Origin: Minisyncoccota bacterium
GTDB taxonomy: Bacteria > Patescibacteriota > Minisyncoccia > Phycocordibacterales > UBA9973
Length of the DNA: 64,000 nt
Assembly: GCA_041663185.1 (NCBI GenBank)
Contig: JBAZQY010000001.1
Location: 233,087 to 297,086, forward strand
Direction of reading: 5' to 3'
Made by a program: the position numbers and the translations under genes. The notes under the pieces are model-generated. The model was not told where the DNA came from. It worked only from the letters and a program-made list of their open reading frames with translations, and made no database searches. This document shows positions 2,800 to 56,965 of the stretch, piece by piece. Each line of letters starts with the position of its first letter. Position 1 is the first letter of the stretch.

Positions 2800-2945
2800 A
2801 ATGTAGTAAGCAAAAAGAGGAAATAAAAAAATATGTTAATAGAATAAAAAATGGTAAAATATAACAAGTAGTAAACAGAAAGTGGTAAGCAAAAAGTATA
2901 AAATTAAATTCCCTTACTACCTACTACCTACTACATACTACACAT
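2800..2945 (+). repeat. second copy of the GTAGTA/CTACTA palindromic element (no ORF)
   Basis: gtagcaagtagaatgtagtaagcaaaaagagg ... cccttactacctactacctactacatactac. Confidence 0.55.
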
Positions 2946-6486: not shown

Positions 6487-8118
6487 ATGAAAAAATTCTC
6501 ATTATACACATTAATATCCGTAATAATTATTAACTTTTTCTTACCGTTTGGTATTAGTTTGAGTAATAATTTAGTCGAGAGAAAAATAGCAGAAGCGGCA
6601 AATGATTGTGTAATTTCTTCAGCTTTTTGGGACCCATCGGGGGAGCAAGCTGATAAATTCTATAGAGAAGGAGCGACAACAGCAAATATCAAAGTAAAAT
6701 CAAAAAATTGTGTCGGGGTAACAGGAATAAATTTAACTATTTACGAATCCGATGGTTGGGGTACCTTTAAGGATGATGTTTGGGATGATTCTGGATTGGA
6801 TGATAGAGAAATATCTATTCCATCTGATAATTTCGCAGTAAGATTATTATTGGGTGAAGAGGATTGCGAAACTAAGCTTACGGGTGGTTTTAAGTTTGAT
6901 TGCGATTTGTATTTTAAATTTAAAAGTGGAACGGATGTTATTTATAGTTCTGTTAATATTGGTTCAAATGGTGATACTGCAGGTAGTAGCGACCCGGGTT
7001 GGCTTTGGTATGGTTGTGATTACACAACCGGAGAACTTTGTGACCAAGATGGGCAATTTTTAGAAGTAATTGCCCTGGGAAACAATGATGACTCAGTAAA
7101 TTTTGATGCATTAGATCCCATTAATTTAGATAATTCATATAATTTATTGGCCCCTATTGGTGATTTTACAAAAGCACCTGATAATATGGGGGATTATTTC
7201 CAATTAATATTTGAACTAGCGATTGCTCTCTGTGCAGTTCTTGCTGTTGTAATGATTGTTATTGGTGGAATTCAATATATGGGGAATGAGTCCATTTTTG
7301 GAAAGACTGAAGCTAAAAGTAAAATAAAATATGCTATTGGTGGTCTATTAATTGCTCTTGGGGCTTATGCATTACTAAACACAATTAATCCAGATTTACT
7401 CGGTGGTAAGGGTGTAACAATAGATCAGGTTAGTGCTGAAATAGTTCGTGATCGTGCTTCAGATCCTGCTTTTATGCAAAATATTGATAGTTTTGACACT
7501 TCTAATATAACAATAACTCCTTCAGATTATAGTGATCCAACCTTTCTTGGATATATGGGGCACCAACAGGGTAGCGCAGGAGCTTCAGCAATCCTTTGGT
7601 CAGCTCATAAAGGATATACAAGTGTTCCAGCTGATAATCCATTCACAAAAAGTGATATCAATAGAAATATGAAAGGAAACTTTAATACAACAAGTGCTCA
7701 AAAAACAATAGGTACATCAGTACTTACCCCCGACAACTTTTTGAAATATTGGGCAACTAAAGTTGCGGCAGTTAAAAATGAAACTACCCCAGTAATTCCA
7801 TCAATGATAGAAAGCGAACTCGGAAAAGTCGCTAGTGAAACTGGAGTTGATATAGCAACACTAAAAACAATCTGCCGAATTGAATCAGCCGGAGGATGCA
7901 CCAATGATTCATCTATTACTACAGTTAATAACCTAGGATATGCTGGATTATTCCAATTAAGTAATAAGGTTTATCAAAAAAACACTGGTGTCTGGGAAGC
8001 ATACAAAAAAAGTGATGGGGTTCTCCTTGATGCTTACCACAATGCTTTTGTTGCGGCCAAATATTTCAGCGTAAACTTAAGTGGAATAAAGAAGAATTGG
8101 TCAAAAATAAATAATTAA
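6487..8118 (+). CDS. membrane protein with two central TM helices and a C-terminal lytic transglycosylase (SLT/VirB1-like) domain
   Basis: signal peptide; TM pair around LAIALCAVLAVVMIVIGG and IGGLLIALGAYALL; SLT motifs RIESAGG, GYAGLFQL and AYHNAFVAAKYF. Confidence 0.55.
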   Translation: MKKFSLYTLISVIIINFFLPFGISLSNNLVERKIAEAANDCVISSAFWDPSGEQADKFYREGATTANIKVKSKNCVGVTGINLTIYESDGWGTFKDDVWDDSGLDDREISIPSDNFAVRLLLGEEDCETKLTGGFKFDCDLYFKFKSGTDVIYSSVNIGSNGDTAGSSDPGWLWYGCDYTTGELCDQDGQFLEVIALGNNDDSVNFDALDPINLDNSYNLLAPIGDFTKAPDNMGDYFQLIFELAIALCAVLAVVMIVIGGIQYMGNESIFGKTEAKSKIKYAIGGLLIALGAYALLNTINPDLLGGKGVTIDQVSAEIVRDRASDPAFMQNIDSFDTSNITITPSDYSDPTFLGYMGHQQGSAGASAILWSAHKGYTSVPADNPFTKSDINRNMKGNFNTTSAQKTIGTSVLTPDNFLKYWATKVAAVKNETTPVIPSMIESELGKVASETGVDIATLKTICRIESAGGCTNDSSITTVNNLGYAGLFQLSNKVYQKNTGVWEAYKKSDGVLLDAYHNAFVAAKYFSVNLSGIKKNWSKINN

Positions 8119-10124: not shown

Positions 10125-10886
10125 TTAATTTGGGGTGTGTGTCAATTTACGACGGATATACCATTCTTGAACGATAGTAAATATATTACTCACAATCCAA
10201 TATAATGCAACTGCGGCTGATATTTTCCAAGCAATAAAAGCAATAAAAACCGGTAAAATATATTTAACATTCATTTGCATGCTTTCAGAGAGTTGTTCTT
10301 GAAACGTCTTTGGGGCTGGGACTTCTGTTGTTCCTTTTACAATTTCAACCTTTGGTTTAACTGGTGATGATAAATAACCTTGAATAAACTGAGTCACCCC
10401 AGCAAAAATACCGAGGAAAAGGCTCTTACTTCCCATTTCTATTAAACCAAGGAAATTGGTGTGCAAACTATCTGGTGTTTGGATAAATGAGTATATCAGA
10501 CTTGGATCAACCGCAAATGGTTTATAAAAAACATAATACAACGCAAAAATAACCGGGAGTTGAAGAATAACGACCAAACAACCAGAAAATGGATTTGTCC
10601 CATATTTTTTATATAATTCAAAGGTTTTTTTAGCTTGTTCTTCTTTATTGGGGAAATCTTTTTTAATCTGCTTAAGCTCGGGTTCCATTTTTTTCATTAA
10701 TATTTGGCTTTTAATGGACTTGCGGGTAAGGGGAGCAAGTATTAATTTTACGATTATTGTCACTAAAATAATAGCAAAACCAACATCACCAAAAGTGATA
10801 TTGTCTATTATAAATATAAGAATATTGTATATGGGTTGGTAAAAGACACTATTCCACAGAGCTTGCATTTCCCTATTGTAGCACAA
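10125..10886 (-). CDS. yidC: membrane protein insertase YidC (short form)
   Basis: multi-TM with PFSGCLVVILQLPVIFALYYVF; position in the rnpA-yidD-yidC-jag order. Confidence 0.85.
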   Translation of the reverse strand: MCYNREMQALWNSVFYQPIYNILIFIIDNITFGDVGFAIILVTIIVKLILAPLTRKSIKSQILMKKMEPELKQIKKDFPNKEEQAKKTFELYKKYGTNPFSGCLVVILQLPVIFALYYVFYKPFAVDPSLIYSFIQTPDSLHTNFLGLIEMGSKSLFLGIFAGVTQFIQGYLSSPVKPKVEIVKGTTEVPAPKTFQEQLSESMQMNVKYILPVFIAFIAWKISAAVALYWIVSNIFTIVQEWYIRRKLTHTPN

Positions 10887-10984
10887 GGAAGCAAAAAGTA
10901 GAAAGTAGTATGTAGAAAGATTGGTTTGAAATATTTTATATTATGTTTTTGTTTTTTCCCTTACTACCTACTACTTACTACCTA
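10887..10984 (+). repeat. third copy of the GTAGTA/CTACTA palindromic element
   Basis: aagcaaaaagtagaaagtagtatgtagaaag ... cccttactacctactacttactacctattac between yidC and yidD. Confidence 0.55.
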
Positions 10985-11191
10985 TTACTTAATTGGGTCG
11001 TAATGATTTTTTTGCCAAGGATGACAACGAGAGATCCGAACAACACCCCGCCAAAGGCCAGTCCAGACTCCATATTTTAAAATGGCTTGTTTAGTATATT
11101 CTGAGCAGGTTGGCAAAAAGACACAAGATGAGTGAGATCGAAGTGGTATTTTTTGATAAATATTTATTAACCAAAGTAATATTTTTTTCAC
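10985..11191 (-). CDS. yidD: membrane protein insertion efficiency factor YidD
   Basis: FLPTCSEYT ... RCHPW signature. Confidence 0.8.
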   Translation of the reverse strand: MKKILLWLINIYQKIPLRSHSSCVFLPTCSEYTKQAILKYGVWTGLWRGVVRISRCHPWQKNHYDPIK

Positions 11192-11675: not shown

Positions 11676-11801
11676 AAGGGCAATATATACTATTTAAGCT
11701 AATATTGCAATCTCTATCATAAAACATATCCACACGATATCAACATATTAATTAAGGTATTTTATTGTTGGAGAATTAAAAAACAATGTATAATACGCAC
11801 T

Positions 11802-13169: not shown

Positions 13170-13382
13170 TGGTAATAAGTCTGTTGAAAACTTGGGTTTA
13201 TAAAAAAATAATTTGTGGAAAAAAAATCATTTATAAAAAAATAAAAAGTAATTAACAAATTAAATTAAAAACAAAAAAAATAAAACAAAAAATATCTTTA
13301 TATTAAAAGACAAAAAAGAAATCCACATATTAACACCCATAATAATAGTAGTAAGTATTAATAAGATAATTTATAACATATT
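13170..13382. promoter_or_regulatory. candidate oriC: AT-rich dnaA-dnaN spacer with DnaA-box-like 9-mers
   Basis: tttgtggaaaa (revcomp TTTTCCACA) and aaatccaca; long A/T tracts; a further tatccaca lies upstream of dnaA near 11727. Confidence 0.5.
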
Positions 13383-14486: not shown

Positions 14487-14750
14487 ATGGACTACAACCA
14501 CATAACAAGTTTTTTAGATAAGTTTAAAAAACTACTTTTTCAAAAAGAGGAAATTAAAAAAATTGTAACCCAAACAATAAGAGAAGAAATTAATCATCAA
14601 GTAGATGATAATTTAATAAAAATAAAAGATGGTTACATTTTTATACAAGTATCCCCGGTTCTTCGTAGTGAAATTATGATTCATAAACAAAGAATTTTAA
14701 TAAAACTAAAATCACTCGTGCCTGACATCAACTTTTTAGATATTAAATAG
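14487..14750 (+). CDS. small DUF721/DciA-like protein
   Basis: 87 aa immediately after dnaN; IKIKDGYIFIQVSPVLRSEIMIHKQRIL pattern. Confidence 0.45.
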   Translation: MDYNHITSFLDKFKKLLFQKEEIKKIVTQTIREEINHQVDDNLIKIKDGYIFIQVSPVLRSEIMIHKQRILIKLKSLVPDINFLDIK

Positions 14751-30374: not shown

Positions 30375-30487
30375 TTATATACCTACAAACACATGGGGCC
30401 GTCACGAATAATTCGTGGCGGTCTTTTTTATTTCCATCAATTTTTTTATTACAAATAATCTTCGGCGAATTCTGATATAATTAGAAA

Positions 30488-37244: not shown

Positions 37245-38189
37245 CTAAACGAATAATTTTTGATGAACATTACAAAAATGTGTACTACGTCCATTTATAA
37301 CTTTTCTCATTATAACACCAGAACAAGCATGTTTACCACATTTTGTATTTTTCTTCTGATAAACGTTATGTTTATTTTGAAAATTACCTTTTTCTCCATG
37401 GATATTCCGATAATCAGACATCGAATCACCACCGAAATCTATTCCTTTAGTAAGGACCTTTTTCATTTCTTTATACAATTTTAATAATTTTTCCGGAGGT
37501 ATTTTTATTGAATTTGATTCTGGATGAATACTAGAAGACCAAAGCATTTCATCTGAATAAATGTTTCCGATTCCAGCAATAACTGTCTGGTCCATTAAGA
37601 TAGTTTTTATCTTTCCGCTTGTTTTTAAAAATAGACGATCTTTAAACTTTTCAAAAGTAAAAATTTTTTCTAATGGCTCGGGACCAATATTTTTCAAGTG
37701 CAAAGTATTTTCTAAATCATGAGTTGGTATAATGGTAACCTTCCCGAATTTACGAGAATCACAAAAAGCCAAATGTTTAACACCCGAGAAAGTAAAAACA
37801 ACATGAATAAATCGATTACATGGATCTGATAGAGATTTCCTTTCATTTTTATCTGGAACCCAGCTTACTACTTTCTGCTTACTACCTACTACTTGTTTGT
37901 ATTCGCCAAAAAGAAGATGCCCAGTCATTTTTAGATGAATGAGAATTGTATAACCACCAGAAATATGAATTAGAATATTTTTTGCTCGTCTTTCTACTCT
38001 TAGAACTTTTTTCCCGATAACTTTTTTCTTAAATTTTTTGAAAAATACATCATTTTTAATTGTGTCTTGAAATTGTTTAACTTTTTGATTTTTTTTCGAA
38101 AGATCAGTCCAGATATCAACAAAAACAAGCCCTGGTAGGACTTTTTGCAAACCATTTACTGTTGTGGTGACTTCTGGGAGTTCAGGCAT
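37245..38189 (-). CDS. mutM: formamidopyrimidine-DNA glycosylase (Fpg/MutM)
   Basis: MPELPEV N-terminus; C-terminal zinc finger CGKHACSGV ... HFCNVHQ; carries an in-frame repeat-like segment at about 37864-37895. Confidence 0.9.
   Translation of the reverse strand: MPELPEVTTTVNGLQKVLPGLVFVDIWTDLSKKNQKVKQFQDTIKNDVFFKKFKKKVIGKKVLRVERRAKNILIHISGGYTILIHLKMTGHLLFGEYKQVVGSKQKVVSWVPDKNERKSLSDPCNRFIHVVFTFSGVKHLAFCDSRKFGKVTIIPTHDLENTLHLKNIGPEPLEKIFTFEKFKDRLFLKTSGKIKTILMDQTVIAGIGNIYSDEMLWSSSIHPESNSIKIPPEKLLKLYKEMKKVLTKGIDFGGDSMSDYRNIHGEKGNFQNKHNVYQKKNTKCGKHACSGVIMRKVINGRSTHFCNVHQKLFV
37864..37895 (+). repeat. CTACTA-repeat segment (cttactactttctgcttactacctactacttg) embedded in frame in fpg
   Basis: exact cttactacctactac match to the right arm of the hairpin elements; encodes an extra roughly 20-aa loop compared with E. 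coli Fpg. Confidence 0.5.
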
Positions 38190-38247
38190 GAAAAAATAAT
38201 TAGGAATTAATAATTAAGAATTACGAATTGAGAAAATAAATATAAAA

Positions 38248-48028: not shown

Positions 48029-48382
48029 ATGGACTACATATCATACGAAGAATTTAAAAAGATGGATATCCGAGTTGGAACAATCAAGGAAGTTGAAATA
48101 ATTCCAGAGACCGACAAACTTTTACGTTGCCAGGTAGATTTTAATGAAATTAATGAAGAAGGAAATAAAAAGTTAAGACAAATTGTTTCAGGGATAAAAG
48201 AATATTATCCCGACCCACAGGTCTTAGTAGGGAAACAGGTACTATATATTGTAAATCTTGAACCAAGAAAAATTAAGGGATATGAAAGTAATGGAATGCT
48301 AATGGCGGTGGATGGAATCGATGGCAAGCCAGTTTTTCTTATTCCTGAAGTCGAAGTTAATCCCGGAAGTAGGGTGAGGTAA
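48029..48382 (+). CDS. tRNA-binding domain protein (CsaA/Trbp111-like)
   Basis: MDIRVGTIKEV ... IVSGI ... SNGMLMA OB-fold pattern. Confidence 0.7.
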   Translation: MDYISYEEFKKMDIRVGTIKEVEIIPETDKLLRCQVDFNEINEEGNKKLRQIVSGIKEYYPDPQVLVGKQVLYIVNLEPRKIKGYESNGMLMAVDGIDGKPVFLIPEVEVNPGSRVR

Positions 48383-48445
48383 TTAAGAATTAAAAATTAA
48401 GAATTAAAAAATGTCGAACCAATTAATTACTAGAACCTAATTCAA

Positions 48446-52067: not shown

Positions 52068-52856
52068 ATGAAAATAAAAATTTTATACGAAGATAAAAAT
52101 ATTTTAGTTATCGATAAACCAGCGGGTATTTCAGTGCATGGAGATGGTAAAACCAAAGAAGAAACAATTTCTGATTGGGTGCTTTCAAATTACCCATCAA
52201 TAAAAAATGTCGGAGAGCCAATTAAATTAAAAATTAAGAATGAGGAATTAAGAATTAATCGGCCGGGAATTGTCCACCGCTTAGATAAAGAAACTTCGGG
52301 AATTTTGATTATTGCTAAAAATCAAAAAACTTTTCTTTTTTTGAAGGAGCAATTTATGAACCATAAAGTTAAAAAAGTTTACCGAGCATTTGTTTATGGT
52401 TATGTTTCTGATCCCAAGGCTTCACTTCTTACCGGTGGAAGGGGAGTAATAAATGTTCCAATAGGTCGCTCATCAAAAGATATCAGGGCATATACTGCTG
52501 GGCGTGGAGCGAGAGCCCCACTTCGTGAGGCTGTGACAGAATATATTATTTTAAATAAGTTTACTGATTCGAGCGATGAAAATGAAAAGAAAAAAATTGA
52601 ACATCAGTATTCTTATATTGAAGCATATCCAAAAACTGGGCGAACTCATCAGATTAGAGTTCATATGCGTTATATTAATCACCCAGTAGTTTCTGACCCG
52701 ATTTATCGTGGAATAAAAGAGAAATCTTTAGGCATGAAGCGCCTCGCGCTTCATGCCTATTCGGCAACTTTTACTCTTCCAAATGGAAAAGTGAAAACTG
52801 TAGAATCTCCACTTCCGGCTGATTTCAAAAAGGTGTTAAAAACATTTTTGAATTAG
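52068..52856 (+). CDS. RluA-family pseudouridine synthase
   Basis: catalytic HRLDKETSGILIIAKN. Confidence 0.85.
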   Translation: MKIKILYEDKNILVIDKPAGISVHGDGKTKEETISDWVLSNYPSIKNVGEPIKLKIKNEELRINRPGIVHRLDKETSGILIIAKNQKTFLFLKEQFMNHKVKKVYRAFVYGYVSDPKASLLTGGRGVINVPIGRSSKDIRAYTAGRGARAPLREAVTEYIILNKFTDSSDENEKKKIEHQYSYIEAYPKTGRTHQIRVHMRYINHPVVSDPIYRGIKEKSLGMKRLALHAYSATFTLPNGKVKTVESPLPADFKKVLKTFLN

Positions 52857-53026: not shown

Positions 53027-53665
53027 ATGAGAACAAAAACTCTCGAGCAGAACACGGCGCAAGATTTCGCTGGACTGCAAATCGACCAGTTGAGCAAATT
53101 GCGCAACGGTAACATCACCTTTGAACAGGTGAAATGGTTTAACAACCTTACATTCGAGCAACGCGAAGCGTTGATGGGCAAGCAACCCGAAATGGTGCTT
53201 TTCCTGAAACTGCTTTCCGGAGCTGAAACGCTGATGCTTGATGCCCTCGATGGCACAGAGACATTGGCAACCGCTAAGGAAGTTTTTCCATCGGGTATTG
53301 ATGGCGACTTCAAAAACTGGGGCACCAACAAGTCCAGTATCGCTACCAAAGAACAGGCGGTAGAGGTACACGAACTAGTAAAGGATGGAACCTTTGCACA
53401 GATGTTTGGTTCTCTCGGGACCGATCTGGATAAGTGGTGTTTAACACAAGCCCAGATAAAGAACTTTTGTAAAAAATATCCCAACTGGTTACGCAAAGAC
53501 GGATATGTGACTTTCTTCCTATTTAAGGTTGAAGATCACTTCTTCGTTGCTCGCGTGCGCGTGCGCTCTGGTGGCTTGGGCGTCGACGTCGGCGGGTTCG
53601 GGGGCGGCGTCGTGTGGGGTTCTGACGTCCTTCCTCGTGTGGTAGTCCCGCAACAGGTTGCTTAG
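53027..53665 (+). CDS. DGR variable (target) protein; VR encoded at the C-terminus
   Basis: 212 aa; about 50% GC against about 33% in the flanks; last 39 codons form the VR. Confidence 0.8.
   Translation: MRTKTLEQNTAQDFAGLQIDQLSKLRNGNITFEQVKWFNNLTFEQREALMGKQPEMVLFLKLLSGAETLMLDALDGTETLATAKEVFPSGIDGDFKNWGTNKSSIATKEQAVEVHELVKDGTFAQMFGSLGTDLDKWCLTQAQIKNFCKKYPNWLRKDGYVTFFLFKVEDHFFVARVRVRSGGLGVDVGGFGGGVVWGSDVLPRVVVPQQVA
53536..53654 (+). repeat. DGR variable repeat (VR)
   Basis: 119 bp aligned to TR; 21 mismatches, all at TR adenines. Confidence 0.85.
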
Positions 53666-53687
53666 ACACTTAAATAATTTGATTCTT

Positions 53688-53721
53688 AATCCCTTTGATA
53701 CTTTGTCAGAGGGATTTTTTT
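53688..53721 (+). terminator. hairpin + T-run after the target gene
   Basis: aatccctttgatactttgtcagagggattttttt. Confidence 0.5.
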
Positions 53722-53963
53722 ATGTATAATTAAAATACAAGCGTGCGATACTTCATGGTTACGGCTACGAAGTCACTTTTGTGGAAAACCATTATTGAGA
53801 ATTTTGTTGGTTACGGCTTACAAAAGAGTGGTAATGTTTTTTCAAATTAAAAAATAATTTAGTTGGTGTAGTTTGCTTGTGAATTTTGATATTCCAAATG
53901 ATATACAGCACGATTCCTAATGGAAACATGTTTGAATCGGCAGTGAAATAGATGGCACACTAC

Positions 53964-54082
53964 ACAATTCTTCGTTGCTAACGTGAACGTGAACTCTGAT
54001 GGCTTGAACGTCAACGTCAACAGGTTCGAGAACGACAACGTGTGGAATTCTGACGTCCTTCCTCGTGTGGTAGTCCCGCAAC
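53964..54082 (+). repeat. DGR template repeat (TR), non-coding, rich in AAC triplets
   Basis: aacgtgaacgtgaac ... gagaacgacaac; identical 3' 40 nt (IMH-like) with the VR. Confidence 0.85.
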
Positions 54083-54100
54083 TAAATATTTCTCCCCTGA

Positions 54101-54442
54101 TTAATTCTTGGGAGTTTTTATTTCAAGTCCCTTTTTCCAACCACCTAACATTCGCCCAATTTCATCAAGTTGTGTTGACAGTGTAATGTATTTTTCGGTT
54201 GGTAAACATTTATTTTCCCAAGAAATCTGAAGGAAAAATTTTACTCCATCTAATTTTGAAATTGAGATAGTTAATCGATTGATTTTATTTTCTCCTGAAA
54301 GATATTGAGAAACAAAAATATTTTCCAAAAGTTCTAAAAAATATCCTTCAATTTTTTCTCCAATAGTGCGACGATACATCTTAGGGAAGTCAATAAAAAT
54401 CTTAAACCAGATAGAATAAGCACCTTTTGCTTTTATGAGCAC
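54101..54442 (-). CDS. avd: Avd-like accessory variability determinant (four-helix-bundle)
   Basis: 113 aa from a GTG start; C-terminal LDEIGRMLGGWKK matches the Avd/IVS family; lies between TR and RT on the opposite strand. Confidence 0.65.
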   Translation of the reverse strand: MLIKAKGAYSIWFKIFIDFPKMYRRTIGEKIEGYFLELLENIFVSQYLSGENKINRLTISISKLDGVKFFLQISWENKCLPTEKYITLSTQLDEIGRMLGGWKKGLEIKTPKN

Positions 54443-54453
54443 CTGAGGTGCTC

Positions 54454-54463
54454 GGGGGGGGGG
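54454..54463. repeat. G10 homopolymer tract (C10 on the avd strand) next to the 17-bp hairpin gagcacctgaggtgctc
   Basis: ten consecutive G at 54454-54463 in the avd/RT divergent spacer. Confidence 0.9.
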
Positions 54464-54493
54464 TAATTAATGAATTCATATAATTAAAATAAA

Positions 54494-55513
54494 ATGAAAA
54501 AATTTGATAATAAATATAATGATATCATATCTATAGAAAACTTACTTTTAGCTTGGCAGGAATTTCTAAAAGGCAAAAGAAAAAAGAAAGATGTTTGTGA
54601 ATTTCAATTAAAACTTATGGACAATATTTTTGACTTACATAATGATTTAAAAAACAAAACATACAAACACGGTGAATATATTGCTTTTAAAATTAATGAC
54701 CCCAAACCAAGAGATATTCATAAAGCAAGTGTCAGAGATAGATTACTTCATCATGCTATATACAGAATACTTTATCCATATTTTGATCAAAAATTCATTT
54801 ATGACTCGTATTCTTGTAGATTGGGTAAGGGGACTCATAAAGCCATAAACAGATTCAGAGATTTTTCTCGAATTGTCTCAAAAAACAGTACAAGGTCTTG
54901 CCTTGTACTAAAATGCGACATCAGAAAGTTCTTTGCTAGTATTAATCACCAAGTATTGAAAAACATTTTAGTAAAATACATGGATGATAAAGATACTCTT
55001 TGGCTTATTAACCAAATTGTAGACAGTTTTCAAACCACTTACAACTTTACCAAACTAACGCTATCGCGTTCCTTTGGTAAAGGACTTCCTTTGGGCAACT
55101 TAACTAGTCAACTGCTTGTGAATATTTATATGAATGAATTTGACCAATTTGTAAAAAACAAACTAAAGATAAAATACTATATCCGCTACGCGGATGATTT
55201 TGTCATTTTGCAAAATGACAAAATGAAACTTCTTGATAATTTAGATCGAATGAAAGAATTTTTAAGTAATGAATTAAAATTAAATATGCATCCAGATAAA
55301 ATATTTATTAAAACACTTTATTCTGGTATTGATTTCTTGGGATGGGTAAGTTTCCCAAACCATAGAGTTTTAAGAACATCAACCAAAAAGAGGATGTTTA
55401 GAAATTTGGAGAAGTGTAATTATAAAAAAGAAAGTGTAAATTCTTATTTGGGGATGTTGTCGCATGGAGATGGGTATAAGCTAGAAAATTTGATAAAAAT
55501 TTGCTTAAAATAG
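54494..55513 (+). CDS. DGR-type reverse transcriptase
   Basis: RT motifs [30 protein letters not shown] (DGR-style LGxxxSQ), RYADDFVIL (YADD). Confidence 0.9.
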
Positions 55514-55997: not shown

Positions 55998-56025
55998 AAT
56001 TGGTAGACGCTACATCCTTGAGGTG
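55998..56025 (+). pseudogene. truncated tRNA-Leu-like fragment (D-loop to anticodon loop)
   Basis: aattggtagacgctacatccttgaggtg aligns to tRNA-Leu positions about 14-41. Confidence 0.45.
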
Positions 56026-56038
56026 ATATAATATAGAC

Positions 56039-56722
56039 ATGAGCAAGAGGGGACCACAACCAAAAAGGATTATAAATGAAAAATGGAATGCAAACTTAGC
56101 TTATGCAATTGGTCTACTCGCTACTGATGGTTGTCTGGCTAATGATGGGCTGTTAATTGATTTAACCTCAAAAGATAAAGAACAGCTATTAAATTTTTCT
56201 AAATGTGTTGGTGTAAATTTTAAGATAGGTAATAAGTGGAACTTAAAAGGAGATGAATGCCTAAGAATTCAATTTAAAAATAGAATTTTCTACGATTTTC
56301 TTTTGTCGATTGGGCTAACTTCTAAAAAATCATTAACTATGGGGAAATTAAAAGTGCCAGATAAATATTTTTTTGATTTTTTACGAGGGTGTTTTGATGG
56401 AGATGGTTGTTTTTATTCTTATTGGGATCCTAGATGGCGTTCGAGCCATATGTTTTATATTGAATTTGTTTCTGCCAGCAAAGAGCATATTGATTGGTTG
56501 CAACAAGAATTAAAAAATAACATTAAAGTAAATGGACATATCACTGTCGCTTTTAAAAAGAATAAATATTATCAACTAAAATATGCAAAAAAGGAAGCGA
56601 TGGAAATAATAAAGAAAATGTATTATAATCCCAATGTTGTTTGTTTATCTAGAAAAAAGATTAAAATCCAAAAAGCCCTAGAGATAGAGAAGAGACAACA
56701 GAAAAAATATTTAACAAAATAA
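56039..56722 (+). CDS. LAGLIDADG homing endonuclease (two-motif, monomeric type)
   Basis: AYAIGLLATDGCL and FLRGCFDGDGCF. Confidence 0.85.
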   Translation: MSKRGPQPKRIINEKWNANLAYAIGLLATDGCLANDGLLIDLTSKDKEQLLNFSKCVGVNFKIGNKWNLKGDECLRIQFKNRIFYDFLLSIGLTSKKSLTMGKLKVPDKYFFDFLRGCFDGDGCFYSYWDPRWRSSHMFYIEFVSASKEHIDWLQQELKNNIKVNGHITVAFKKNKYYQLKYAKKEAMEIIKKMYYNPNVVCLSRKKIKIQKALEIEKRQQKKYLTK

Positions 56723-56723
56723 T

Positions 56724-56809
56724 GCGCGGGTGGCGAAATCTGGTCAGACGCACTACCTTGAGGTGGTAGCGGGAGCAATCCTATGGAGGTTCGAATCCTC
56801 TCTCGCGCA
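56724..56809 (+). tRNA. tRNA-Leu (anticodon GAG), type II
   Basis: acceptor GCGCGGG/CTCGCGC, anticodon stem CTACC/GGTAG with loop TTGAGGT, long variable arm, T-arm GGAGGTTCGAATCCTCT; starts 2 nt after the HE stop. Confidence 0.8.
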
Positions 56810-56965
56810 CAAATAAAGTTTGCAATTTGTATAATTAGTGGTAATGTGAAGAAAATACCTCACATATAGTCATAGTCAAAAGTCATTAATTATTTGATGT
56901 TTTTTGACTATGACTGCTGTGGTGGTGGTCCTCTAGTACATTTAAATAATTAAATATTTAAAATT

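Follow-up and report, generated by a model that had tools for sequence, protein, structure and literature searches.

Repetitive extragenic palindromes (REPs), short tandemly repeated repetitive sequences (STRRs), miniature inverted-repeat transposable elements (MITEs) and the intervening sequences (IVSs) of rRNA have been known for decades, and their origin and function are largely open questions. STRRs, reportedly described by Mazel et al. in 1990 and by Vioque in 1997, are tandem 7-nt units in short, dispersed and mostly intergenic arrays, with several unit types per genome (CCCCAGT, for example) in heterocyst-forming cyanobacteria, where they also lengthen a helix of the RNase P RNA. To our knowledge they have not been described as obligate inverted pairs of fixed polarity, in linkage with PF05635 genes or in Patescibacteria. 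Among the IVSs, shorter forms without an open reading frame (ORF) exist. The 23S rRNA IVS of Coxiella and Leptospira carries a PF05635 (S23p) ORF, and its processing by RNase III has been shown in Coxiella (PMC4990558). REPs and REPINs (REP doublets forming hairpins), the repeats associated with RAYT (REP-associated tyrosine) transposases, are species-specific extragenic palindromes that form inverted dimers (PMC3733652; Bertels & Rainey 2011, PMC3116915), and in the GTAG-REP in particular a stem-loop of 20-40 bp carries at one end a single GTAG tag that stays unpaired (Di Nocera et al. 2013, PMC3733652). The subject here is a family of hairpins with arms of tandem heptamers, three copies of which (A, B and C) lie at gene boundaries in a 64,000-nt stretch of contig JBAZQY010000001.1 (64 kb, referred to as the window) from a Candidatus Paceibacterota metagenome-assembled genome (MAG). 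These elements belong, as a variant, to the known broad class of bacterial palindromic and tandem extragenic repeats; they resemble REPs and REPINs, STRRs and IVS stems but fit none of their definitions. The preferred reading, given a probability of roughly one half, is that copies B and C are ORF-less, STRR- and REP-like heptamer-array stem-loops which are transcribed within operons, act as RNA hairpins and are maintained by slippage.

The sequence-only reading of this DNA had pointed to two ORF-less palindromic segments, here called copies B and C, and both are present as described. Together with copy A they are made up as follows.

2785-2941, + strand: copy B as a whole, ~157 nt, filling the spacer from the prgI stop to the traC start
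2785-2810, + strand: outer 5' arm of copy B, GAAAGTAGCAAGTAGAATGTAGTAAG, made of GTAGNNN units (GTAGCAA GTAGAAT GTAGTAA G)
2811-2864, + strand: A-rich loop segment of copy B, conserved in the orthologous spacer of relative L157
2865-2896, + strand: inner 5' arm of copy B, CAAGTAGTAAACAGAAAGTGGTAAG (2865-2889), followed by a second GCAAAAAG
2911-2941, + strand: 3' arm of copy B, CCCTTACTAC CTACTAC CTACTAC ATACTAC
10891-10991: copy C as a whole, ~101 nt, with yidD and yidC both on the minus strand
10898-10919, + strand: GTAG-type arm of copy C (GTAGAAA GTAGTAT GTAGAAA G), the 3' arm in the yidD-yidC transcript
10920-10957: loop of copy C, AT-rich, free of ORFs and dissimilar to the loops of copies A and B
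10958-10991, + strand: CTAC-type arm of copy C, CCCTTACTAC CTACTAC TTACTAC CTATTAC TTA
10869-10897 region, minus strand: U-tract CUUUUUGCUU (complement of 10889-10898), downstream of the copy C stem
1889-1953, + strand: two GTAG-type arrays of copy A, directly before the PF05635 start codon
1954-2334, + strand: PF05635 / TIGR02436 four-helix-bundle (23S rRNA-intervening-sequence) gene, in the loop of copy A (E 3.7e-34)
2344-2376, + strand: CTAC-type 3' arm of copy A, ending 6 nt before the prgI ATG (2380)

The anatomy common to these copies is a 5' arm of three to four tandem GTAGWAN units and a 3' arm of three to four YTACTAC units, with one mismatch or wobble pair per unit because the seventh position is variable. 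According to the inverted-repeat finder, pairing extends over 30 nt in copy A (1889-2376, ~488 nt; 1891-1920 with 2344-2373, 87% complementary), 22 nt in copy B (2789-2810 with 2913-2934, 82%) and 36 nt in copy C (10884-10919 with 10960-10995, 78%), and Tandem Repeats Finder reports a period of 7 with 3.6-9 copies at 1890, 2347, 2785, 2915, 10895 and 10962. What the copies share is these heptamer arms, AAGCAAAAAG at the left (10889-10898 in copy C) and TCCCTTACTAC at the right; their loops are unrelated, that of copy C being 40 nt long. The palindromic build, the asymmetric marks and the common + orientation had been read correctly from the letters, and the orientation is the same despite opposite directions of transcription. 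Within copy B, GCAAAAAG occurs twice (2810-2817 and 2889-2896), and TATAAAAT (2897-2904) follows the inner arm and the second GCAAAAAG. With up to two mismatches CTTACTACCTACTAC has 16 matches in the window against 0.10 expected (none of 100 shuffles as high), and with up to one mismatch GTAGNNNGTAGNNNGTAG has 17 against 0.04. The matches are confined to five loci (1645-1662, which is coding, 1889-2376, 2785-2941, 10891-10991 and 37860-37895 in fpg), which bears out the earlier claim of a single repeat family that takes in the fpg fragment as well as the three copies. Rfam covariance models gave nothing at gathering score in the window and nothing at E<=1 for 1850-2980, with only sub-threshold generic miRNA-precursor hairpin models for 10820-11050.

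The elements share with STRRs the tandem heptanucleotide units in short arrays at dispersed loci, and two unit types occur in the window; they differ in host, a Paceibacterota MAG, and in the units themselves, GTAGTAA and AATTAAG. The likeness to REPs lies in extragenic location downstream of ORFs and between unidirectional or convergent genes, in inverted dimers forming long hairpins, in GTAG...CTAC polarity, in the presence of some copies inside repair and pseudouridine-synthase genes, and in the roles in termination and mRNA stability that have been proposed for both. Copies B and C lie in just such places, between unidirectional genes and directly after stop codons, with arms in inverted pairs. 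However, GTAG here recurs every 7 nt and is base-paired with CTAC, a single arm is not palindromic, no RAYT or other Y1 transposase was detected in the 64-kb window, and the AATTARG family lacks GTAG altogether. Copy A resembles the IVSs in carrying a PF05635 gene in the loop of a terminal-inverted-repeat stem of ~28-30 bp, ORF-less IVSs are paralleled by copies B and C, and both kinds have a sporadic distribution, suggesting lateral transfer. IVSs, however, are located in 23S rRNA, at helices 25 and 45, from which RNase III excises them, whereas the present elements lie between protein-coding genes and have stems made of heptamer arrays; there are no rRNA genes in the window. Copy C resembles an intrinsic terminator in having, on its transcribed strand, a long stem with UUUUUG after it where a transcription unit ends, although the stems of this family are AT-rich, 20-30 bp long and regularly mismatched, with loops of 40-100 nt, and copy B bears a promoter-like sequence and has no U-tract. 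The MITEs (Nezha, RUP, NEMIS/Correia, ERIC) and the Rickettsia palindromic elements (RPEs) are likewise small, ORF-less, dispersed, gene-adjacent palindromes that are co-transcribed and fold into hairpins, and the occurrence of both unit types in frame in genes (fpg, an RluA-family gene and a 317-aa gene) is RPE-like. A MITE, however, is bounded by terminal inverted repeats of defined sequence and by target-site duplications, and has a parent insertion sequence and a conserved body; none of these features was found in the window.

Under the preferred reading, each hairpin would fill the whole spacer from the stop codon of one gene to the start codon of the next. In copy B the prgI stop codon (TAG, 2797-2799) lies inside the outer 5' arm and the end of the 3' arm is 4 nt from the ATG (2946) of the next gene, so that a single stem would have the prgI stop and the traC start at its base; copies A and B alike have stop and start codons at, or a few nt from, the stem base (the gene upstream of copy A has its stop at 1886). 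The sequence-only reading had placed copy B between prgI and virB4, which is right on the prgI side, but the gene immediately 3' is a TraC-like ORF of 217 aa which precedes VirB4. An extended -10-like sequence, TGGTAAAAT, lies within the loop segment at 2852-2860, and copy B may thus enclose an internal promoter of the traC-virB4 genes. The B spacers of the relatives introduced below all have a conserved extended -10 of this kind within or beside them, in the form TGGTAAAAT in L157, as in the window, and TGATATAAT or TGTTATAAT elsewhere; in most genomes the loop contains it, while L158 and L171 have it beyond the hairpin.

Copy C was correctly assigned to the yidD-yidC spacer, except that yidC starts at 10868 and not at 10886. 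On the transcribed strand the order is the yidD stop codon (minus strand, 10985-10987) inside the CTAC-type arm, which is the 5' arm of the transcript, then the stem, the U-tract CUUUUUGCUU, the extended -10 sequence TGcTACAAT (10883-10875, minus strand), 6 nt and the yidC ATG (10868). Its best fold is that of the sense (minus) strand (-27.6 kcal/mol, z -3.95), and a stable stem directly before a U-tract at the end of a transcription unit is what characterises intrinsic terminators. Copy C would accordingly be the terminator of the rpmH-rnpA-yidD unit, its stem being followed by UUUUUG, and the yidC mRNA would be leaderless, as the extended -10 box is 6 nt before its start codon; TACAAT is kept at the same distance from the yidC ATG in all relatives. 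A promoter and terminator scan of the window called neither copy B nor copy C, a simple terminator scanner missing both because their loops exceed 8 nt. Shine-Dalgarno motifs precede 4 of the 46 window ORFs of at least 150 aa, and TATAAT stands 6-10 nt before the ATG of many genes, dnaA included (for example at 11787-11801, 30473-30487 and 56024-56038), which suggests that leaderless mRNAs are the norm in this host. Given both observations, junctions that combine a terminator with a leaderless promoter would be the local norm, and the window has many other long hairpins with A and T tracts.

The hairpins would thus be transcribed as parts of operon mRNAs and act as RNA. The sense RNA folds more stably than the antisense RNA in 10 of 12 hairpins at the positions of copies B and C in the window and its relatives, copy B of the window being an exception; this bias is the signature of G-U pairing and fits stems that work at the RNA level. 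Slippage of the 7-nt unit would lengthen, shorten and homogenise the arms, with selection or repair keeping the two complementary. Stop and start codons that meet at the stem base could serve looping-out, translational coupling or, by analogy with the PF05635-bearing IVS of Coxiella (PMC4990558), RNase III processing; the 64-kb window yielded no signature motif of RNase III. A general role of the arrays as stop-codon 'insulators' was rejected, as GTAGTAA and AATTAAG arrays stop all three frames whereas GCAGTGT arrays carry no stops. The occurrence of these hairpins at unrelated sites and the lack of a relaxase in the window make function as an oriT or a replication origin unlikely.

The comparative evidence comes from nine syntenic relatives retrieved via VirB4 (88-97% aa identity), which have ~73-84% nt identity to the window, so that the comparison stands above strain level. 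Three sites were compared, namely site A between the 317-aa gene and prgI, site B between prgI and traC, and site C between yidD and yidC, with the following occupants.

Window: site A, PF05635 gene (126 aa) with GTAG arms; site B, GTAG hairpin; site C, GTAG hairpin
L157: site A, PF05635 gene (126 aa) with GTAG arms; site B, GTAG hairpin; site C outside contig coverage
L158: site A, PF05635 gene (130 aa) with weak arms; site B, GTAG hairpin; site C outside contig coverage
L125 and L127: site A, a different PF05635 gene (116 aa) with AATTAAG arms; site B, AATTAAG hairpin; site C, AATTAAG hairpin
L173: site A, the 116-aa PF05635 gene with AATTAAG arms; site B, AATTAAG hairpin; site C, unique palindromes mixed with AATTAAT-type units
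L122 and L124: site A, no cassette, other palindromes; site B, AATTAAG hairpin; site C, a unique palindrome (GGAAGTCGGACTTCC)
L171: site A, GC-rich palindromes; site B, GC-rich palindrome; site C, GTAG-like hairpin
L172: site A, none, a 19-nt spacer; site B, a 110-nt GC-rich palindrome; site C, the same 110-nt palindrome

Every relative has a long palindrome at one or more of the three sites, and nearly all sites are filled. Structure and site are kept across the relatives while the sequence is not; the two arms of a pair always switch type jointly, and the repeat family is specific to the genome. The PF05635 protein is 86% identical to that of the window in L157 and 77% identical in L158, the 116-aa type of L125, L127 and L173 being 21-30% identical. 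The 3' arm of the site-B hairpin ends 4-10 nt before the traC ATG in L122, L124, L125, L127 and L157. In L172 the two copies of the compound GC-rich palindrome (7188-7300 and 14585-14700) are ~88% identical and on the same strand; GC-rich palindromes related to it are also seen in L171, L122 and L124. An inserted GIY-YIG ORF separates traC from virB4 in L125. Compared in this way, the sites are shown to be long-lived and their occupants to turn over between lineages.

The age of copy B follows from its comparison with L157, whose spacer aligns with that of the window over its full length, AATATGNTAATANANTAAAAAATGGTAAAATATA included. Between the two genomes nt identity is 75% in the B spacer, 73% in prgI, 78% in traC, 81% in virB4 and 84% in the PF05635 gene, so copy B, although non-coding, is conserved to the same degree as its coding neighbours. 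Because the spacer has diverged about as far as the flanking prgI and traC, copy B is as old as the genes around it. The sequence-only reading had taken the family to be active or recently active, a view which the orthologous copy in L157 (75% against 73% and 78% in the flanks) does not support. With L124, which lacks the cassette, the window shares 52% nt identity in the B spacer, 81% in prgI, 83% in traC and 84% in virB4. The flanking genes therefore group the window with L124, while the elements (copies A and B) group it with L157, and in windowed identities neither prgI nor traC shows a tract resembling L157. Possible histories are an ancestral origin of the GTAG-type elements, with replacement in the lineage of L122 and L124, or their lateral exchange. 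No claim is made for a recent lateral replacement of copies A and B, since vertical descent with replacement in the L122/L124 lineage fits equally well; to judge from these identities, copy B is not a recent insertion under either history.

Several points weigh against the reading of copies B and C as RNA hairpins maintained by slippage. The sense RNA of copy B (-21.4 kcal/mol, z -1.1) folds no better than shuffled sequences while its antisense strand folds better (-30.9 kcal/mol, z -3.1), and there is no U-tract; with so weak a sense fold and no U-tract, a role of copy B as RNA is the least secure part of the explanation. The sense bias in 10 of 12 hairpins comes from hairpins that are orthologous rather than independent cases. 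In a compact genome with very short spacers, stop and start codons could fall at the stem base trivially. Slippage alone would explain neither why one unit type recurs at several sites of a genome nor why the G-containing arm is always 5', and the roles proposed at the level of transcription are inferred from DNA sequence. Genome-specific families at the same sites and one family at two sites in L172 would also fit a mobile element.

Mobility is accordingly the next explanation to be weighed, the elements then being non-autonomous palindromes of MITE or REPIN type that depend for mobilisation in trans on an enzyme from another part of the genome, prefer intergenic hairpins and are still active. 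This is judged rather unlikely, although much of the distribution could be accommodated: one family has several copies in 64 kb, A, B and C are co-oriented on the + strand though oppositely transcribed, the families at the same sites are particular to each related genome (the 110-nt palindrome of L172, at 88% identity, at both B and C), and at site A the relatives variously have the PF05635 cassette, a cassette of another type or none. RAYT-mobilised, GTAG-tagged REPs have the same GTAG...CTAC polarity and also occur in repair and pseudouridine-synthase genes (PMC3733652), and an unrelated Saccharibacteria hairpin in L036 is flanked by a 23-nt direct repeat. In that contig a hairpin of GTAGGTG... 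and CTACTAC... arms (2031-2165) lies between copies of the repeat TGTTCAGATCCCGGCTTCGAACAT, which is itself a small palindrome; there is no tRNA gene, and the repeat could be a target duplication.

The window copies themselves lack such marks. Target-site duplications, proposed earlier as a check, flank neither copy B nor copy C, the flanks of copy B (...GATGAAA before and ACACATATG after) and those of copy C (...GCAAAAA before and TTAATTGGG after) having no direct repeat in common. Copies A, B and C have neither a conserved core nor a constant length (~488, ~157 and ~101 nt), and their arms, although inverted and 78-87% complementary, are tandem 7-mers of variable number with ends that differ between copies. 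A probe for Y1 transposases found nothing in the 64-kb window, where no other transposase was found either, and the ORF of copy A is a PF05635 gene and no transposase. The comparison of presence and absence that had been suggested for related strains, made here among related genomes above strain level, found no empty site B in any of the nine syntenic relatives (9/9 filled, with other palindromes where the GTAG hairpin is missing), and copy B is orthologous between the window and L157 with a divergence like that of the flanking genes. Moreover, a compact genome offers few permissive intergenic sites, and the same ones would be expected to be re-used anyway. The earlier description, 'MITE-like or RNA-structure', stands better in its second half, the first having only partial support: no duplication, common core, constant length or transposase was found in the 64-kb window.

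The explanation of the hairpins as a neutral by-product, in which slippage-prone heptanucleotide microsatellites accumulate in tolerant spacers and are neither functional nor mobile, bears on how widely the units occur. An exact scan for (YTACTAC)3 with one genome per species gave at least 120 stretches, the matches listed coming from Bacteroidota, Cyanobacteria, Patescibacteria, Elusimicrobiota, Omnitrophota and other phyla, and including GTAGTAR-unit arrays in contigs of Calothrix, Pleurocapsa and Waterburya. In a viral collection, 63 stretches of (YTACTAC)3 compare with 105 of (TCAACTY)3, 8 of (CTATCAY)3 and at least 120 of (AATTARG)3. These control scans with permuted units (105 and 8) led to rejection of GTAGTAR as a uniquely widespread unit, and because tandem heptamers are common in general its wide occurrence is no evidence for a single homologous family. 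That heptamers of unrelated sequence are equally common in the viral collection is what neutrality predicts, as is the variation in unit number between copies and between relatives. Polarity, however, is hard to reconcile with it: among the matches listed, 84 arrays were testable, with a partner within 800 nt on the 5' side in 22 and on the 3' side in 1, so that the G-containing arm leads, whichever of the two strands is read. The control unit RAGTTGA...TCAACTY behaves in the same way in viral contigs (G-arm first 21 vs 2), and the polarity of AATTARG is weaker (16 vs 8). Slippage makes neither a complementary array across a loop nor such a polarity (22 vs 1; 21 vs 2), the two arms switch type jointly between relatives, the B spacer is conserved like its coding flanks between the window and L157, and sense strands out-fold antisense strands; the neutral explanation is therefore held to be improbable. 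In contigs of Saccharibacteria and others (L090, L141), ordinary terminator hairpins lie within heptamer arms or are lengthened by them. A metagenome scan with TCCCTTACTACCTACTAC returned 27 contigs, all unrelated to the window, and none of the 120 loci listed in the (YTACTAC)3 scan matched it. Four homologous metagenome contigs (L135, L143, L146 and L156; ~38-40% GC), which may be phage genomes, have TCCCTTACTACCTACTAC-type C-rich tracts before a gene start with a GAGG ribosome-binding site, and no G-type partner was seen for these tracts.

Also in keeping with neutrality is that arrays run in frame through variable protein linkers. These coding arrays, and those of a second heptamer family (AATTARG / CYTAATT, period 7 at 38198, 38918, 48381 and 52225), are the following.

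37860-37895, minus strand: GTAG-type array in frame in fpg, GTAGTAG GTAGTAA GCAGAAA GTAGTAA, translated as QVVGSKQKVVS
1638-1681, + strand: GTAG-type array in frame in the 317-aa gene, AAGTAGT AAGCAGG AAGTAGC AAGGAAG ...
38197-38234, + strand: AATTARG left arm of a pair around ruvA, ending 7 nt from the fpg start codon
38918-38950, + strand: CYTAATT right arm of the pair around ruvA, 33 nt, 91% complementary to 38197-38229
48379-48412: array of the AATTARG family
52225-52258: array of the AATTARG family

One unit of the fpg array has CAG AAA where TAG TAA would have come into frame. Fpg orthologues (P0122-P0180) have at the same loop a VVSSKQKVV-like sequence, a VIKNEKLRIKN-like sequence or a short version, and the two kinds of insert would be encoded by GTAG-type and AATTAAG-type arrays, respectively. 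Similarly, after the PPYA motif of the 317-aa gene the window has AAGTAGT-type units where L122 and L124 have AATTAAG / AATGAAG (verified at the DNA level). In one register GTAG and AATTAAG units differ at two of seven positions (TAAGTAG vs TAAGAAT). One AATTARG-family array follows a gene for a tRNA-binding domain, and one is in frame in an RluA-family pseudouridine synthase (IKLKIKNEELRIN), its TAA-bearing unit being changed to GAG.

The association of the arrays with PF05635 genes has been considered as a system of its own. Inverted heptamer arrays surround six of seven PF05635 genes that were picked by synteny or protein similarity (L125, L127, L157, L160, L163 and L173, with L158 weak), and 4 of 120 loci selected by their arrays, among the matches listed, adjoin a PF05635 gene (L005, L079, L094 and L106). 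In the six genomes that bear a cassette the heptamer type at site B is that of the cassette flanks (three GTAG, three AATTAAG), but sites A and B are 420 bp apart, so that the co-variation may be linkage, and the six genomes are not independent. A search of viral contigs with a single PF05635 protein gave one locus. No literature on heptamer arrays around PF05635 genes was found, nor any description of the elements' link to a four-helix-bundle gene or of their turnover between related genomes. A functional pairing of protein and repeat is thus possible, though unproven. A broader proposal, which is doubtful at best, would make PF05635 genes and heptamer hairpins a widespread REPtron-like system without a transposase, with satellite stems at gene boundaries and in linkers, a unit rewritten genome-wide whenever the cassette changes, and looping-out or excision at the RNA level keeping leaderless operons working. 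The narrower idea that the arrays are the cognate sites of the PF05635 protein, which by analogy to RAYTs and REPs would bind, protect or propagate its own heptamer and have the ORF-less copies as satellites, gains some plausibility from Coxiella and Leptospira, where the same protein family lies inside a hairpin cut by RNase III (PMC4990558), but is very improbable in view of a heptamer type that is independent of protein similarity (GTAG arms with 26-86%-identical proteins, AATGAAT arms with the 56%-identical protein of L163), of the 116 of 120 arrays among the matches listed that have no PF05635 neighbour, and of L122 and L124, which lack a cassette at the locus and have heptamer hairpins all the same. 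The possibility that PF05635 sequence dictates the heptamer type is, by the same identities (26-86% under GTAG, 56% with AATGAAT), not supported.

The genes around the three copies encode PrgI, a TraC-like protein, VirB4, Jag/KhpB, YidC, YidD and RnpA, and the window covers the dnaA / rpmH-rnpA-yidD-yidC origin region. An AT-rich tandem tract (TTTATAAAAAAATAA and poly-A) at 13197-13292, between dnaA and dnaN, is likely the origin-unwinding region. A diversity-generating retroelement lies at 53027-55513. Its reverse transcriptase is at 54494-55513, a bAvd-like gene on the minus strand at 54101-54442 and a candidate target gene with a GC-rich 3' end at 53027-53665; the variable and template regions may be those with short CGCGTG / AACGTG repeats (53552, 53980 and 54007). 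A LAGLIDADG-like homing-endonuclease ORF (56039-56722) immediately precedes tRNA-Leu (56724-56810).

PF05635 is a very large family, and the present locus ties it to palindromic repeats within one compact genome, where the same heptamer stems occur with and without the gene at boundaries that can be compared across many syntenic relatives. The main interest lies in the association with PF05635, the strict polarity of the arms, the way families replace one another at fixed sites, and the arrays read in frame in conserved enzymes. If the reading as operon-borne RNA hairpins is true, heptamer arrays in Patescibacteria would mark operon boundaries, would be places where assemblies break, and should not be annotated as mobile elements.

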